Part shown: positions 55,570 through 63,393 of the stretch, piece by piece
Layout of the letters: every line of letters begins with the position of its first letter
Position numbering within the stretch: position 1 is the first letter of the stretch
Assembly: GCF_044324875.1 (NCBI RefSeq)
Contig: NZ_CP172185.1
Source of the DNA: Escherichia coli
GTDB taxonomy: Bacteria > Pseudomonadota > Gammaproteobacteria > Enterobacterales > Enterobacteriaceae
DNA: 64,000 bases
Direction: 5' to 3' (one strand)
Program-made: the position numbers and the translations under genes
The notes under the pieces: model-generated
What the model saw: only the letters and a program-made list of their open reading frames with translations
Told to the model about the DNA's origin: nothing
Databases searched by the model: none

Positions 55570-57240
55570 ATGGATAATGCAGAACTCGCCATTGGTATCG
55601 ATCTCGGTACTACCAATAGTTTAATTGCCGTCTGGAAAGACGGTGCCGCGCAATTAATTCCAAATAAGTTCGGTGAATATTTAACACCATCCATAATTAG
55701 CATGGATGAAAATAATCATATTTTAGTCGGAAAACCCGCTGTATCACGGCGCACTTCGCATCCGGATAAAACGGCAGCGTTATTTAAACGTGCAATGGGC
55801 AGTAATACCAACTGGCGGTTAGGCAGCGACACATTTAACGCGCCAGAACTGTCCTCTTTGGTATTACGCTCATTAAAAGAAGATGCCGAAGAATTTCTGC
55901 AACGTCCGATTAAAGATGTGGTGATCTCCGTTCCGGCTTATTTCAGCGATGAACAACGCAAGCATACCCGTTTAGCAGCGGAGTTAGCCGGGTTAAATGC
56001 GGTACGCTTAATTAATGAACCCACAGCAGCTGCGATGGCATATGGCCTGCATACGCAACAAAATACCCGCTCGCTGGTTTTTGATCTCGGTGGCGGCACG
56101 TTTGACGTCACGGTGCTCGAATACGCCACGCCGGTGATTGAAGTTCACGCCTCCGCTGGCGACAACTTTCTTGGCGGCGAAGATTTTACTCATATGCTGG
56201 TGGATGAAGTTTTAAAACGCGCCGCAGTGGCTAAAAACATGCTCAACGAAAGTGAGCTGGCAGCCCTGTACACCAGCGTGGAAGCGGCAAAATGCGGCAA
56301 TCAATTACCGCTGCAAATTAGCTGGCAGTATCAGGAAGAAACGCGTGAGTGCGAATTTTACGAGAACGAACTGGAAGATTTGTGGTTGCCGCTGCTCAAT
56401 CGCTTGCGAGTGCCGATTGAACAGGCGTTGCGCGATGCACGTCTGAAGCCCAGTCAAATCGACAGTCTGGTGCTGGTTGGCGGCGCATCACAAATGCCGC
56501 TGGTGCAGCGAATCGCCGTACGTCTGTTTGGCAAATTACCATATCAAAGTTACGACCCGAGCACCATTGTCGCGCTGGGCGCAGCAATCCAGGCCGCCTG
56601 CCGCTTACGCAGTGAAGATATTGAAGAGGTGATCCTCACTGATATTTGCCCTTACTCGTTGGGTGTTGAAGTTAACCGCCAGGGCGTTTCCGGCATTTTC
56701 TCGCCGATAATTGAACGAAACACCACTGTACCGGTGTCGCGTGTAGAAACTTACTCGACCATGCACCCGGAACAGGATTCAATTACGGTTAACGTCTATC
56801 AAGGAGAAAATCACAAAGTTAAAAATAACATTCTGGTGGAATCCTTTGATGTGCCGTTGAAGAAAACCGGGGCTTATCAGTCGATTGATATTCGCTTTAG
56901 TTATGATATCAACGGGTTGCTTGAAGTTGACGTGCTTCTGGAAGACGGCAGCGTTAAGTCCAGAGTCATTAATCACAGTCCTGTAACATTGAGCGCACAG
57001 CAGATTGAAGAGAGTCGGACGCGGTTATCCGCATTGAAAATTTATCCGCGCGATATGCTCATCAACCGTACCTTTAAAGCCAAACTGGAAGAGTTGTGGG
57101 CGCGGGCGCTGGGTGACGAGCGAGAAGAGATCGGCCGGGTGATCACCGATTTTGATGCGGCGTTGCAGTCAAACGATATGGCCCGCGTCGATGAAGTTCG
57201 GCGACGGGCGAGCGATTATTTGGCTATTGAGATCCCTTAA
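55570..57240 (+). CDS. hscC: Hsp70-family chaperone HscC
   Basis: 556 aa; Hsp70 signatures IDLGTTNS and DLGGGTFD. Confidence 0.9.
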   Translation: MDNAELAIGIDLGTTNSLIAVWKDGAAQLIPNKFGEYLTPSIISMDENNHILVGKPAVSRRTSHPDKTAALFKRAMGSNTNWRLGSDTFNAPELSSLVLRSLKEDAEEFLQRPIKDVVISVPAYFSDEQRKHTRLAAELAGLNAVRLINEPTAAAMAYGLHTQQNTRSLVFDLGGGTFDVTVLEYATPVIEVHASAGDNFLGGEDFTHMLVDEVLKRAAVAKNMLNESELAALYTSVEAAKCGNQLPLQISWQYQEETRECEFYENELEDLWLPLLNRLRVPIEQALRDARLKPSQIDSLVLVGGASQMPLVQRIAVRLFGKLPYQSYDPSTIVALGAAIQAACRLRSEDIEEVILTDICPYSLGVEVNRQGVSGIFSPIIERNTTVPVSRVETYSTMHPEQDSITVNVYQGENHKVKNNILVESFDVPLKKTGAYQSIDIRFSYDINGLLEVDVLLEDGSVKSRVINHSPVTLSAQQIEESRTRLSALKIYPRDMLINRTFKAKLEELWARALGDEREEIGRVITDFDAALQSNDMARVDEVRRRASDYLAIEIP

Positions 57241-57244
57241 ACAC

Positions 57245-57285
57245 GGCTGCCGGATGCGGCATAAACGCTGCATCCGGCATCGGCG
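57245..57285. repeat. REP-like palindrome between convergent hscC and djlC
   Basis: ctgccggatgcggcataaacgctgcatccggcatcgg. Confidence 0.6.
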
Positions 57286-57299
57286 CAAAAAACACTTCC

Positions 57300-58751
57300 T
57301 CAGCTAAACAACATCGCGATTTTTCCGAGAGCATAACCTATCACCAGCACCGTTAAGCTGATTTTGATAATGCTGGTAATGCTCTGTGGTTTTTCATCCT
57401 CATCATTTTTTTCTTCGTGGTTTTCAGGTGTTGGCTCATCGACATCTTCATCCTCCGGCTCGAGTTTCACTTTCGTCAACAGCATCCGGGTGATAATGGC
57501 CTCTAATGGATGAGCATCTCCACCTTCCAGCCTTGTATTAAGACGGGCCAGCATCTCTTGTTTCGGGAACGCTTCCAGCACAACCTGTTCCGCTACCCGA
57601 TACAAATCCAGTAACGGTGAATCTTGTTCTGTCTCGCTACCGACTCTCGATTTCCACCACGCCCATGCTTTGCGCTTGAAGAATAACGACTCAATAAACG
57701 ATTGACCTAACGGCGATAATTTTCCGCTATGTAAAATTTCCGCCCATAACAGCCGCGTCCGGGCGCTCTCACCAGGAACATATTTCAACGGTTGACCTTG
57801 CGCATCAACCATGCTCTGCGCTTCGATAACCATCACTAACAGCGCGAAATAATCCGGGCAATGACGCTTGCTCCACTGCAACAACAAATTATCGGCTTGT
57901 GTAGATGGGTAACTCTCCCGGTATGCGCAGAGATCGGCAAGCAGGCTTTCCCCCTCGCCACAGTACAACCGTTGCGCACACTGGTAATAACGGGCATCTT
58001 CGCTTTCTGGTTCTTCTGCTTGCCACTGTTGGGCAACAGGAATGAGTTCCGCCATACCTCTTTTCACCGAGCTGTACCAGCGCAACAGTTTGCGATGTAA
58101 CTTGACATCATCAGGAATGAACCACGGACCTTCCATTGCCATAAACGCAGTGACATAGTCGGGATGGTAACGGCAACAGCGTTCCAGCGCGAAGTAATAC
58201 TCAACAGTCTGGTTCTGCAACGCGACGGGATATTCCAGAAGGCTAAGGAAATCGAAACAATCACCAGCCTGAATGGCCTCAAGAAAAGCCTCCCTTTCTT
58301 CCTCATCCATTCCTTCGCTGTCATTAAACGAATGCCAGTTCAAACGCTCTGCCAGCAAAGAAGCACAATTTAATGAAAGATATCGCGCTTCTATAGCGAT
58401 TGCACACAGCGGCCAGCGTAATTGATCGACATCCTCCATGTTCCAGGTATTTAATTGCTGAATAAATTTCTGCCAGGCGGAGGGCTGAAAACGATCACTT
58501 TCTGAATCCAGTAATGTCCTGAATGCACGTAGTATTTCATGTTCAGCGGCGGCATCTTTTTCTTCATCATCTGCTTCCTCGACAGGATTTACCGCCAGTC
58601 GCAGCGCCTCTTCATAGGCCTGGCGTAATGCTTTAAACCCCTGCGGATCGGTTTCGGGATGACACAACGGTAAGCGAGCAAGATAAGCCTGGCGGATAAT
58701 GTCTATTTGCGTCGTGCTTTCAATTTCGAGGATTTGCCAACATGTTTTCAT
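57300..58751 (-). CDS. djlC: J-domain co-chaperone of HscC (membrane-anchored at the C-terminus)
   Basis: 483 aa; N-terminal J-like domain with an HPE tripeptide; C-terminal hydrophobic segment; start overlaps the ybeU stop. Confidence 0.8.
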
Positions 58752-59455
58752 AGGTCGCTCACATCCTTAAGCGTTACCGGGCATTCAGGCTGGGCAGTCA
58801 ATGGCTGCCAGGGAAGCGTGGCATAGAAACGATCGCTTCCCGCTGCCAGCTCTTCGAACATCCGACTCCCGGCGCTATCGTATTTGTACAGGGTTAGCGC
58901 CTCGCGTAACGAAGCGTTGTCTTCGCATTGAGAAGATTGCCAGTAGAGACGCCCTAGTGAATAGGCAGAAAAATAGTGCATCCAGCTGTGATAGTAATGG
59001 TGTGCTCGGACATAGATGCGCGATTGCAGCCATAAACTCTCTTCTTCCGTCAGCCACTTGTTGAGCACACCGACCCGTGACAGAAACCCCATTCGAACAT
59101 AATCCCAGGCTTTGATTCCCCCTTCTCCACAGCACATAGCGGTTTGGGCAACGAATTGGGTATAAATCAACCCTCTCTCCGAGCCACCAGCAATTAATGC
59201 TTTCCACTCTTCAGGGGAAGAGCGATGCCATGTCAGATATAAGCCAGCTAAATCATTGGCATGACCATCATCGGTCATCTGATAAATAGTCTGAATTAAA
59301 TCATCACGATTATTTATTCCCCAGGATGATGAGAGATCGAATTCTTTTATCCCGGTATACATTTTTGGCGAGTCATGCGCGGGCTTGCAACCCTGATTAA
59401 GTATTTCCATGGGCGTAGAAAGCGCAAAAAGAAGATATTGTTCTTCCTTATTCAT
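58748..59455 (-). CDS. ybeU: DUF1266-family protein
   Basis: 235 aa; translationally coupled to djlC; paralogous to the ybeR product. Confidence 0.8.
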
Positions 59456-59556
59456 TTGTTAATAATCCCTTAAGTGCATTAACTGACTACTTTTTTATTA
59501 TTGATGAGTATAAACTTGACGCTTTCAAAATAAAAAGAAAATCGAAGTATTCACAC

Positions 59557-60111
59557 ATGAATAAAAAATTAATGTATATATTCGCAATATTTATAGTTGC
59601 AGCAATAACCTGTATTAGTCAACCCAAGAAAACGACGTTGCGTGATAAAGCCATGGTGAATTATGCCTTTGATTATTTAAGCTCACCGGGCAGTCTTCCA
59701 TTCACCACGGCAGCCACGGAGCTTTCCGCGATTCATGGTCACTCAACGTCGCAATATCGCCTTGGAGAATTTTATCTTCATGGTAGCGACGGTAAACCAC
59801 TGGATTATACACAGGCGAGATACTGGTATGAGCAATCAGCGGAACAGGAAAATCCACGCGCGCAAAGTAAACTGGGGTGGATCTACCTCAAAGGTCTGGG
59901 GGTCAAACCCGATACCCGTAAAGCAATTCTCTGGTATAAGGAAGCAGCTGAACAAGGGTATGCTCATGCTCAATATACTTTAGGTTTGATCTACAGAAAC
60001 GGCTCAGGTATTAATGTTAACCATTATGAATCTCAAAAATGGTTAAAACTGGCCGCCAAACAACATTACAAAAATGCGGAAAGATTACTTGCCGGGCTTC
60101 CCGCACATTAA
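59557..60111 (+). CDS. ybeT: Sel1-repeat (TPR-like) protein with signal peptide
   Basis: 184 aa; Sel1 repeats (AQ..LG..Y..G.GV..D...A..WY..AA.QG). Confidence 0.8.
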
Positions 60112-60120
60112 CGTCGACTG

Positions 60121-61548
60121 TCACCCGAACAGATGGAGTATTTTCCCTATCAAACCAGCAAAGATAAAAATATAGAAAATAATTTTGATGACGCCCAGAC
60201 AGCCCGGCCCACCATCGTCAACGGGCATTGGCTGCGGTTGCGGCTCCGGTTCAACAGTTTGCTTCTCGGTAAAATTCGCCGCCTGAATTAATAATCGACG
60301 AATAATTAATGCTTCCAGTGGACAACGATCTTCTGCATCAAGGCGGCTCACAATCGGCATTAATGATTCTTCTGTCGGTTGGCTGGCCTGCACTAATTGT
60401 TTGGCAACTAGATATAATGGCCATAAGGGATGTTCTGTATCACGCGTGAGTGAGATCCGCGGCTTACGTCCTTTGTGCAAAACCATCTCGACCAGAGAAC
60501 GCCCCAGCGCAGAGAGTTTTTCATCACTGAGTATTTCGTATAAATGAAAACGCGTACGAGCGCTGTCACCAGGGACATAAAGTAGCGGTTTTCCCTGATC
60601 GTTAACCAGATCACGCGCTTCAATCATCATCACCACTAATGGGTAATAATCGACCCGATGCTGACGGCACCATTGCAACATTAAAGCATCCGCCTGGGTG
60701 GAGGGATACTCGCGCCAGTAGTCACAAAGTTCTGCCAGCAGGCTTTCGCCTTCTCCACAATAGACGCGTTGCGCGTATTCATAATAACGCGCATCTTCAT
60801 TATCAGGTTCAGCTTCCCGCCACGACCGGGCGTAATCCAGAAGTTCGGGGATTCCCAGGCGGCTTGCGCTATACCAGCGGAGTAAATTTCTGTGCAGTTT
60901 TGCATCATCGGGGATAATCACTGCGCGATGTTGCGCTAAATACAATGTCAGCCATTCTGGATGCGATGACCAAATCCGAGCGAACATTTGGTAAAAATCG
61001 ATGGTGTCATTTTGCACGGCAACGGGCAGATGCAGAATGGTCTGGAAGTTAAAAACATTCCCCTTCGCAATGGCATATAAAAAGGATTCCAGTTCTTCTT
61101 CGTCTATTTCCCCGGTGTTTTCCTCCTGCAACCACCGCAGTCTTTCTGCTAATAACACCACGCACTCGAAGGATAAATGGGCAGTGTTCATGGCGATTGT
61201 GCACAGCGACCAGCGTAATTCATCAATCTCTTCCATCGAGCAATAATTTAATTGCTGAATGAATCGCTGCCAGGCGGAAGGCAGAAAACGTTCGCTATCA
61301 GAGGCGAGTAACGCACGAAAGGCGAGCAGAATTTCATGTTCTGCAACTTCATGTTCTTCTGGTTGCCAAACAGATTTAGCAGGGGACTGCGCAATCCGTA
61401 GCGCATCCTCATACGCCTGACGAAGTTGTTTAAAACCCTGCGGATCTGTTTCTGGATGAAAGGACGGTAACAAGGCCAGATAAGCGCGACGGATAATATC
61501 GACGTCAGTCGTTTGAGGTATATCGAGGATCTGCCAGCAAGTTTTCAT
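60121..61548 (-). CDS. djlB: J-domain protein, paralog of DjlC
   Basis: 475 aa; same architecture as djlC (N-terminal J-like domain with HPE, C-terminal hydrophobic tail). Confidence 0.8.
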
Positions 61549-62252
61549 AGGTCGCTCATATCCTTAAGCGTTTCCGGGCATGTGGGGTAGTCAACCAGTG
61601 GTTGCCAGGGTAAGGTCGCGTAATATGCATCGTCACTGGCAAATAATTGATAAAACATATCATTGCCGGAATCGTCGTATTCTTTACGCGCTAAGAATTC
61701 ACGTAATAACTGAAGATTATCATCTTCGGGAGACTGCCAATATTGCCGACCAAAGGTATAACCGGCAAAGTATTGCTGCCAGTTACTATAATAACGTAGC
61801 GCCCGTAGATGAATGCGCGACTGGATCCATAGACTTTCTTCTTCGCTTAACCAGTTATTAAGTACGCCCATTCGGCTTAAAAAACCCATCCGGACATAAT
61901 CCCAGGCTTTAATTCCTCCCTCACCACAGCATTCGGCGGTGCTGGCGACAAATTGCGCATAAGCCTGACCTTGCTCATTTAATTCAGCAAGATAGTCACG
62001 CCATTCACATGGCGAATAACGAAACCAGCAGTGATAAAACCCTGCCAACCGCGCGGCATGACCGTTATCAATCATTCGGTGAATTGTGCGCAGCAGGTCA
62101 TCACGGTCATCAATTCCCCAGGAGGAAGAAAGGTCAAAAAAGCGTGTACCTAAATACATTTTGGGAGATGAATGCGAAGGTAAACAGCATTCATTGCGTA
62201 TTTCCATCGGAGTGGAAAGTGCAAACAATATTTTTTGCGACTCCATGTCCAT
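61545..62252 (-). CDS. ybeR: DUF1266-family protein, paralog of YbeU
   Basis: ORF 61545..62279; probable start at the internal [13 protein letters not shown]; translationally coupled to djlB. Confidence 0.75.
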
Positions 62253-62409
62253 ATAATTTATCCTTAAATATTCATTCAATGAATATTAACCACGTTGCGA
62301 GGCTCATTTATTTATACTTTTCTGACGCAACATAATACGCATAAAATAAGGCTTACGCAAAAATGGAACACATAAAAATATAATATGTTTTATATGCAAC
62401 CATAAGGAA

Positions 62410-63393
62410 ATGATAATGATTTTTACGTCAAGTTGCTGCGATAATTTATCAATAGATGAGATTATCGAACGTGCTGAAAAAGGCGATTGCGAGGCTCAAT
62501 ATATTATTGGGTTTTATTATAATCGCGATAGCGCAATTGACTCTCCGGACGACGAAAAAGCCTTCTACTGGCTGAAGCTGGCCGCTGAGCAAGGCCATTG
62601 TGAAGCACAATATTCCTTAGGGCGGAAATACTCCGAGGATAAAAGCCGTCATAAAGATAATGAGCAAGCCATCTTTTGGCTGAAAAAAGCTGCCCTACAA
62701 GGCCATACTTTCGCTTCCAACGCCCTTGGCTGGATACTGGATCGTGGAGAAGACCCCAACTATAAAGAAGCGGTTGCCTGGTATCAGATAGCCGCGGAGA
62801 GCGGAATGTCTTATGCGCAAAATAATCTTGGATGGATGTACAGAAATGGCAACGGAGTCGCTCAAGACTATGCGCTGGCATTTTTCTGGTACAAACAAGC
62901 TGCATTACAAGGCCATAGTTACGCACAAGACAATCTGGCCGATCTTTATGAAGACGGAAAAGGCGTTGCTCAAAACAAGACACTCGCCGCATTCTGGTAT
63001 TTGAAAAGCGCACAGCAGGGTAATCGGCATGCCCAGTTTCAAATTGCATGGGATTATAACGCTGGCGAAGGGGTGGACCAGGACTATAAGCAAGCCATGT
63101 ACTGGTATCTGAAGGCTGCCGCTCAGGAAAGCGTCGGCGCTTACGTCAACATCGGTTATATGTATAAACATGGACAAGGCGTTGAGAAAGATTATCAGGC
63201 CGCCTTTGAATGGTTTATGAAAGCCGCTGAATGCAATGACGCCACTGCCTGGTATAACCTGGCCATTATGTATCACTACGGAGAAGGAAGACCTGTCGAT
63301 CTCCGACAGGCTCTCGACCTGTATCGTAAAGTTCAGGCATCCGGTACCAGGGATGTCAGTCAAGAAATCCGTGAGATTGAAGATTTACTGTAA
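62410..63393 (+). CDS. ybeQ: Sel1-repeat protein
   Basis: 327 aa; multiple Sel1 repeats. Confidence 0.8.
   Translation: MIMIFTSSCCDNLSIDEIIERAEKGDCEAQYIIGFYYNRDSAIDSPDDEKAFYWLKLAAEQGHCEAQYSLGRKYSEDKSRHKDNEQAIFWLKKAALQGHTFASNALGWILDRGEDPNYKEAVAWYQIAAESGMSYAQNNLGWMYRNGNGVAQDYALAFFWYKQAALQGHSYAQDNLADLYEDGKGVAQNKTLAAFWYLKSAQQGNRHAQFQIAWDYNAGEGVDQDYKQAMYWYLKAAAQESVGAYVNIGYMYKHGQGVEKDYQAAFEWFMKAAECNDATAWYNLAIMYHYGEGRPVDLRQALDLYRKVQASGTRDVSQEIREIEDLL

Follow-up and report, generated by a model that had tools for sequence, protein, structure and literature searches.

Which of the genes clustered around hscC, the gene for a specialised Hsp70 of Escherichia coli, make up a chaperone system, and which of them merely live next to it? 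In the 64,000-nucleotide (nt) stretch of E. coli contig NZ_CP172185.1 (assembly GCF_044324875.1) analysed here, which we call the window and to which all coordinates refer, hscC is accompanied by two gene pairs, each encoding a protein of the DUF1266 family and a J-domain protein (DjlC or DjlB, jointly referred to as Djl), and by two genes for Sel1-repeat proteins. An earlier note, made from the sequence, had taken the whole arrangement for a dedicated chaperone-targeting system. This description held for DUF1266, Djl and HscC, which our comparative analysis points to as the conserved core, and failed for the Sel1 genes as core parts, which would be lineage-specific accessories at most. HscC, the third E. 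coli Hsp70, was described biochemically more than 20 years ago and still awaits the assignment of a client and of a physiological role. In every lineage that we examined, DUF1266 is coupled to the co-chaperone of HscC, which makes it an overlooked experimental handle on this chaperone.

Window positions 55570-63393 are the known accessory hscC-djlC-djlB chaperone island of E. coli, in which all genes carry annotations and the Hsp70/J-protein pair has been characterised. [quoted passage not shown] The same review describes DjlB and DjlC as tail-anchored, with inner-membrane insertion shown for DjlC (Peschke 2018, cited therein), reports sensitivity to Cd2+ on loss of hscC or on joint loss of djlB and djlC, and places HscC, DjlB and DjlC below detection in exponential phase. 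Sensitivity to UV is also attributed to the HscC system in reviews. The tripeptide HPE, the only tolerated variant of the J-domain motif HPD, is typical of DjlB and DjlC (PMC13254874, PMC10410713). Reviews up to 2026 give only the Cd2+ and UV sensitivities and a presumed membrane role, and the system was rightly called poorly understood. YbeU, YbeR, DUF1266 and the Sel1 genes are absent from the HscC-system literature that we searched, which treats the system as an Hsp70/J-protein pair, and the single paper in which the term DUF1266 turned up is unrelated; papers outside that scope may mention them. The HscC-DjlC pairing, the HPE motif and the membrane anchoring are already published, and the comparative result on the trio is new. 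DUF1266 as a constant third partner does not appear in the literature searched and is directly testable.

Co-occurrence of DUF1266, Djl and HscC across bacteria

The co-occurrence survey was seeded from DUF1266. Among 1.84 billion representative proteins, 358 DUF1266 relatives were found at E <= 1e-3. An alignment of YbeU-like sequences was scanned against one genome per GTDB species, the Salmonella locus was added separately, and the open reading frames (ORFs) at each locus were annotated with the proteins of the window. The scan resulted in 77 loci in Escherichia, Klebsiella, Rahnella, Erwinia, Pectobacterium, Limnobaculum, Gilliamella, Pseudomonas, Marinobacter and Bowmanella, that is, about 11 gammaproteobacterial genera including Salmonella. 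Every locus with sufficient sequence showed the order DUF1266, Djl, HscC homologue; hscC lay convergent in the majority of loci, and Marinobacter has it on the same strand.

When the flanking ORFs were clustered all against all, three clusters were common across genera, and these were Djl, DUF1266 and HscC. The other sizeable clusters from the flanks did not extend beyond a single genus or a set of close relatives; the one exception was a generic family of transcriptional regulators (LysR-like by eye). The junction between the DUF1266 and djl genes was conserved as well, with an ATGA overlap in 72 of 79 cases and TAATG in five. Distant DUF1266 relatives (about 22-32% identity) kept the trio as well: two contigs had the same order, while on two others Hsp70, Djl and DUF1266 followed each other in this sequence on one strand. 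Retention of the trio despite permuted gene order is strong evidence for a functional unit. The earlier note had made its proposal depend on co-occurrence of the families outside this locus; we found it, with hardly an exception, for HscC, Djl and DUF1266 in the 77 loci, and the Sel1 genes were restricted to Escherichia and Salmonella.

Domain architecture and a predicted DUF1266-Djl complex

HscC (55570-57240, plus strand, 556 aa; ORF list and RefSeq name) scored 375-385 bits against the NCBIfam models of DnaK and HscA, under their cut-offs of 620-822, and its orthologues of other genera scored 585-750 bits against the window protein. By these profile scores it is an Hsp70 distinct from DnaK and HscA. 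YbeU (58748-59455, minus strand, 235 aa) matched the Pfam family PF06889 (DUF1266) over model positions 2-175 of 175 with an E-value of 5.2e-45. The label 'putative tRNA ligase' that some databases still give to YbeU seems to be a leftover annotation error. Its paralogue YbeR is encoded at 61545-62252 on the minus strand (235 aa). The longest ybeR ORF begins at a TTG at 62279 (244 aa); every homologue aligns from the ATG at 62252 (235 aa, MDMESQK...), and the shorter form is the likely gene.

DjlC (gene also called ybeV or hscD; 57300-58751, minus strand, 483 aa) begins with a J-like domain at its N-terminus, continues with a TPR-like helical core and an acidic linker, and ends in a tail-anchor helix (residues 457-483). 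DjlB (ybeS; 60121-61548, minus strand, 475 aa) is its paralogue, with the same J-like domain and a tail anchor at residues 446-475. Helices II and III and the connecting loop of a J domain were recognisable in both by sequence or fold, and the match to the DnaJ profile was weak (E = 0.036). Instead of the HPD tripeptide, DjlC, DjlB and nearly all aligned orthologues carry HPE. The two C-terminal segments were the sole hydropathy peaks of these proteins, as in tail-anchored inner-membrane proteins, and no N-terminal signal was present; the C-terminal anchoring already proposed for the J-proteins was thereby borne out. The same scan detected no hydrophobic segments in YbeQ, YbeU, YbeR or HscC. 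At both junctions in the window the DUF1266 and djl genes overlap by the four nucleotides ATGA (sequence context CTATGAAAAC), again as the note had described.

Outside the Enterobacteriaceae, Djl is a much larger protein of about 890-920 aa. It contains an HPE J-like domain, some 350-450 residues homologous to DjlB and DjlC, a helical stretch and a C-terminal DUF805 domain, which in Pseudomonas and Erwinia (about 890 aa) comprises several hydrophobic segments. A comparison of these architectures suggests that C-terminal membrane attachment is conserved by different means, one helix in enterics versus DUF805 elsewhere, and that the enteric Djl is a shortened, tail-anchored form. TPR repeats were found only in Djl of the lineages with permuted gene order. 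We also considered a fused Sel1 or TPR domain in the extra 450 or so residues of the long Djl and rejected it, as Pfam shows only DUF805 there.

Sequence searches of the PDB with YbeU and with DjlC gave no match. The fold of DUF1266 was predicted with a mean local confidence (pLDDT, predicted local distance difference test) of 93 and has no relative among solved structures, and the Djl core resembles peptide-binding TPR receptors in structure comparison. For the complex, we built a paired alignment of DUF1266, a (G4S)6 linker and the N-terminal ~450 aa of Djl from 20 loci, in which the pairing follows from gene adjacency in every genome. The AlphaFold model of the fused YbeU-linker-DjlC(1-445) (710 residues) reached a mean pLDDT of 82.4 and a predicted template modelling score (pTM) of 0.76; 74 residues in the linker, acidic loop and termini fell below a pLDDT of 50. 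By our own rough estimate, a folded but undocked Djl core would give a pTM of about 0.45-0.5. On this basis, a pTM of 0.76 requires YbeU and the Djl core to be positioned as a single body, and the model is suggestive of, though not decisive for, a complex of DUF1266 and Djl.

Duplication, loss and divergence in E. coli

Full-length YbeU and YbeR share 61% identity (E 9e-110), and DjlC and DjlB 52% over about 437 residues (E 6e-158). Both pairs have the same orientation and hold homologous genes in the same order, which is the arrangement expected of a tandem duplication. The two cassettes are therefore paralogous as far as the DUF1266 and djl genes are concerned; they are arranged head-to-tail and not back to back, and the Sel1 genes, which had been counted as duplicated members, could not be shown to belong to the repeated unit. 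Salmonella holds both cassettes, each matching its E. coli orthologue, as one four-gene run of DUF1266-DjlB-DUF1266-DjlC, and Klebsiella holds one. The duplication that gave rise to ybeU-djlC and ybeR-djlB is older than the split of Escherichia and Salmonella.

We counted the segments of the island in complete E. coli genomes (n = 5426; segment coverage of at least 80%). The gltL-rihA flank was found in 5421 of them, hscC in 4376 (81%), djlC-ybeU in 4268 and djlB-ybeR in 3705. One example genome lacks the entire hscC-ybeQ block and retains 44 nt between rihA and ybeL. Since the module occupies the same site in Salmonella and Klebsiella, the group inherited the island from its ancestor, and E. 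coli has lost it repeatedly. Truncated YbeU alleles are also frequent in this species: they form many clusters of 131-193 aa and 97-99% identity, some with hundreds of members. The island is dispensable and partly decaying in E. coli.

In addition, hscC shows an allelic split. Of 4409 genomes, 1432 carry it at 90-95% identity to the window allele, a band that contains only one of 5421 genomes for gltL-rihA, 92 for djlC-ybeU and eight for djlB-ybeR, the last with a further 87 at 80-90%. Such a split could have arisen by diversifying selection, or by recombination that brought in hscC from a different Escherichia lineage.

A proposed membrane-tethered three-component HscC machine

The explanation that we favour, and consider moderately probable, is a membrane-tethered machine of three components, in which a DUF1266-Djl platform recruits HscC and fires it through the HPE J-domain. 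The ATGA-coupled operon would yield DUF1266 and Djl together, and their complex would assemble at the inner membrane, on its cytoplasmic side, DUF1266 being docked to the TPR-like core of Djl. Djl would be attached to the membrane by the single tail-anchor helix in enterics and by the multi-pass DUF805 domain in most other lineages. Its HPE J-domain would recruit HscC and trigger the HscC ATPase, and HscC would then act on whatever the platform selects or senses at the membrane. Duplication of the DUF1266-Djl pair in the common ancestor of Escherichia and Salmonella would have provided two alternative targeting platforms for one HscC. The Sel1 genes would have been added later as non-core components, ybeQ being cytosolic and ybeT extracytoplasmic. 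This proposal builds on the conservation of the trio and its coupling, the domain architectures and the dispensability in E. coli observed here, and on the ATPase partnership, the anchoring and the Cd2+/UV sensitivity taken from the literature. The fused model and the common H-NS/SlyA control of ybeT and ybeU-djlC also count in its favour. What we infer from these data is that DUF1266 and Djl bind each other and that DUF1266 serves as an adaptor or regulatory subunit.

Several points weigh against this proposal. There may be HscC-type Hsp70s or Djl proteins that lack DUF1266. DUF1266 domains are also present in secreted or multidomain proteins with no Hsp70 in the vicinity, and the domain as such is therefore no intrinsic chaperone component. 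The predicted DUF1266-Djl contact is read from the pTM and pLDDT of a fused model, and a covalent linker can favour docking. The island is missing from about 19% of complete E. coli genomes and many ybeU alleles are truncated, which indicates weak selection in this species. Finally, we know of no HscC client.

A more far-reaching version of the three-component machine is tentative, and we are inclined to doubt it. It would make DUF1266 a third subunit that every HscC machine requires, namely a ligand- or peptide-sensing domain of novel fold with an invariant Arg/Trp-rich surface common to the secreted DUF1266 proteins, which on the Djl platform would decide when and on what HscC acts. If it is true, HscC would be a defined three-part membrane sensor and remodeller instead of an orphan Hsp70, the duplicated cassettes of E. 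coli would differ in input specificity, giving two in all, and the Sel1 proteins would act as additional adaptors in enterics.

DUF1266 as a possible client or inhibitor

Instead of helping to target HscC, DUF1266 could be on its receiving end. A dedicated client of HscC-Djl would be held, unfolded or released in the manner of a switch; a co-chaperone inhibitor would fill the groove of the TPR-like Djl core until a signal displaces it. The conservation and coupling data fit these two roles equally well. The C-terminal tail of DUF1266 is conserved, reading K/R-P-x-S-L-x-E-F/Y-D-W-S-COOH in most genera with a separate 11-residue form in enterics, and such a tail would be a natural ligand for the groove of a core that resembles peptide-binding TPR receptors. 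Furthermore, HscC prefers positively charged peptides (PMC8215388), and the DUF1266 homologues carry invariant Arg residues in our alignment. However, the Shine-Dalgarno sequence and the start codon of djl fall inside the last DUF1266 codons, so that the conservation of the tail may partly act on nucleotides and is confounded as evidence for a ligand. In addition, a domain as well folded as DUF1266 is predicted to be is not an obvious Hsp70 substrate. We therefore regard a role as client or inhibitor as unlikely.

The Sel1 genes

A Sel1 gene lies divergently adjacent to each cassette. ybeT (59557-60111, plus strand) encodes a protein of 184 aa with an N-terminal hydrophobic signal or anchor (residues 2-23) and three Sel1 repeats (PF08238, E <= 1e-3), and ybeQ (62410-63393, plus strand) one of 327 aa with eight repeats by the same threshold and without a signal sequence. 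The two proteins are similar at the level of the repeats only (about 37%). Because of this repeat-level match and the differences in length and N-terminus, ybeT and ybeQ are not demonstrably part of the duplicated unit. Due to its N-terminal signal or anchor, YbeT probably faces the periplasm.

The note's own version of the system had four families, with YbeT and YbeQ as integral parts, for example as TPR-like adaptors binding the HscC tail or its clients. The divergent position of the genes is in line with this version, as is the induction of ybeT together with ybeU-djlC (PMC5797941; see below). TPR repeats are present in Djl of some distant lineages, so that a TPR-type module recurs in the system. 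The population data contribute a linked loss: about 670 E. coli genomes have hscC and yet lack the second cassette or part of it, and in E. coli CMZE065 (L001:7622-8087) a single deletion from inside djlB to inside ybeQ removed ybeR and the 5' part of ybeQ, leaving two pseudogene stubs. A second genome shows similar partial coverage (65%).

But no homologue of YbeQ or YbeT was found within 10 kb of the trio in the loci outside Escherichia and Salmonella. In the surveyed loci, YbeQ-like genes were limited to these two genera and YbeT to Escherichia; Salmonella lacks ybeT, and Klebsiella spallanzanii has a single cassette with no Sel1 gene at the same chromosomal site as E. coli. The small divergent ORFs located 5' of DUF1266 in Pseudomonas and Gilliamella, which we checked as possible analogues of YbeT, were spurious antisense ORFs or an unrelated lipoprotein (BON/OsmY-like by eye). 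Moreover, YbeT would be on the other side of the membrane from the cytosolic Djl and DUF1266 domains. A conserved EEVD-like tail of HscC, which we sought as a binding site for TPR or Sel1 domains, does not exist among the orthologues compared, whose C-termini vary by genus (…DYLAIEIP, …LDELRL, …LQDLNR). Taken together, an integral role of the Sel1 proteins is quite improbable. With these genes removed from the core of the system, the locus is otherwise an ordinary, annotated and dispensable part of the chromosome.

Defence systems and mobility

The island could also be a stress-response or anti-phage defence module that uses an Hsp70 as the basis of an accessory, H-NS-silenced sensor and effector. 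Its patchy distribution in complete E. coli genomes, its clean absence between rihA and ybeL in the example genome, an insertion context that differs between genera, its AT-rich and H-NS-silenced state and the deep allelic split of hscC, which is not seen in the flanking genes, all agree with this idea. On the other side, the module has no nuclease, toxin or other effector domain, and its chromosomal position is stable across the Enterobacteriaceae. Against PADLOC-DB 2.0, HscC, DjlC, DjlB, YbeU and YbeR gave no match, and the Sel1 proteins matched PtuA at noise level only (E 3e-4 to 2e-3, with no stretch passing alone). Neither Djl nor DUF1266 matched any PHROGs family. The literature search retrieved no link between HscC and phage defence. 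We consider a defence function very unlikely.

Among viral sequences, the IMG/VR contigs contained no relatives of the module, and the INPHARED phages only two tiny unannotated fragments and none in real phage genomes. YbeQ and YbeT match phrog_8741, a family of unknown function (8e-88 and 2e-32), and similar Sel1-repeat proteins thus occur in some phages. The plasmid search returned E. coli records, some of which (0.7-4.9 Mb) resemble misfiled chromosomes; only copies on the 130-165 kb plasmids of Erwinia persicina were counted as plasmid-borne. The module is therefore not generally mobile. On one of these plasmids, p_Cp2 (138 kb), the long djl is annotated as four coding sequences (a J domain protein, two hypothetical proteins and DUF805) and no gene is listed at the position of hscC. 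This djl may be disrupted in the strain or fragmented by the PLSDB gene table.

That the DUF1266 and Sel1 genes are mere neighbours with no functional tie to HscC-Djl is the least credible alternative: although no experiment links them to HscC-Djl and the DUF1266 domain also occurs outside Hsp70 contexts, comparative genomics effectively refutes it for DUF1266, given the conservation of the trio amid unrelated flanks, the ATGA overlap and the retention after permutation of the gene order, while it may apply to the Sel1 genes.

Organization and regulation of the locus

All seven ORFs were recovered at the positions given by the earlier note, and their names agree with those in RefSeq. Over 55.5-63.5 kb this stretch of E. 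coli chromosome matches strain A10 at 100% and K-12 derivatives at about 96.5% on the DNA level; the RefSeq names in a 100%-identical E. coli genome, in agreement with our ORF list, are hscC, djlC, ybeU, ybeT, djlB, ybeR, ybeQ and ybeL. The convergence of the first cassette with hscC was likewise confirmed: hscC is on the plus and djlC on the minus strand, with 59 nt between the stop codons. This gap contains an inverted repeat at 57249-57278 (GCCGGATGC...GCATCCGGC), which we read from the sequence as resembling a repetitive extragenic palindromic (REP) element, the REP identity being our own reading against the consensus and no tool call. The hairpin is probably a bidirectional terminator or stabilises RNA; a simple terminator scan did not call it. 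In 27 other loci, mostly from Pseudomonas, djl and hscC converge so closely that the coding regions share their stop-codon ends, which leaves no space for a terminator.

The divergent intergenic regions ybeU/ybeT (59456-59556) and ybeR/ybeQ (62253-62409) are AT-rich, with a GC content of 0.37 in 59250-59749 and of 0.38-0.39 in 62000-62749. In a microarray analysis of SlyA overexpression in K-12, ybeT was induced 4.1-fold and ybeU-hscD (hscD being djlC) 2.8-fold, and both belong to the H-NS regulon (PMC5797941). This membership fits the AT-rich divergent regions and the lack of strong sigma-70 matches. Our promoter and terminator scan found six promoter-like sites versus 12.7 expected by chance, and nothing regulatory stood out in it or in an Rfam search of the region.

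A few further observations concern the surveyed loci. In two Marinobacter loci (L077:4644-9893 and L070), a gene for a protein of 1749-1769 aa with a Walker-A-like motif (by eye) adjoins the same-strand trio. In Salmonella enterica (L003:13951-15189), a gene of 412 aa without a Pfam match is located between rihA and hscC and is absent from E. coli. Escherichia sp. MOD1-EC7003 (L005:3648-5986) carries a third, divergent Djl-like gene with HPE, split into ORFs of 93 and 344 aa and followed by an ORF of 321 aa with a signal peptide; both are situated between ybeL and ybeQ, without a DUF1266 partner. Sequences 95-98% identical to ybeU were found at a contig end of Paenibacillus sp. USDA918EY (L009) and in Trichuris trichiura (A0A077ZGN2, 'DnaJ like subfamily C member 13'), and these copies are almost certainly E. 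coli contamination of the assemblies.

Comparison with known systems

TPR-Hsp70 pairs of the Hop/Sti1 and CHIP type and the RRNPP receptors (AimR, NprR, Rap) share only a weak structural similarity with the Djl core. The Hsp70 C-terminus that defines the Hop/CHIP-type pairing ends in an EEVD-like motif, which HscC does not have, and peptide binding by Djl is putative. DnaK and DjlA are closer in their logic, since there, too, a J-protein tethered at the inner membrane brings an Hsp70 to this site. However, DjlA has an N-terminal anchor, a C-terminal J domain and DnaK as its partner, whereas Djl shows the reverse layout, serves HscC only according to the literature and is coupled to DUF1266.

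The HscA-HscB-IscU system of Fe-S cluster assembly likewise joins a specialised Hsp70 that works without a nucleotide-exchange factor to a J-protein of its own and to a third, dedicated protein from the same gene cluster, and it may serve as a useful analogy for a three-part HscC system. There, in contrast to the system described here, IscU as the third protein is the known client, HscB is a soluble protein with HPD, and neither DUF1266 nor a membrane anchor is part of the system. The HscC-DjlC/DjlB system of E. coli (Hsc62-Hsc56; Kluck 2002, as cited in PMC8215388) is identical to the present one, with the same genes at the same site, the HPE J-domain, the tail anchor and the convergent hscC. 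In the descriptions that we searched it is a two-part pair of an Hsp70 and its J-proteins, to which our comparison adds DUF1266 as a conserved companion.

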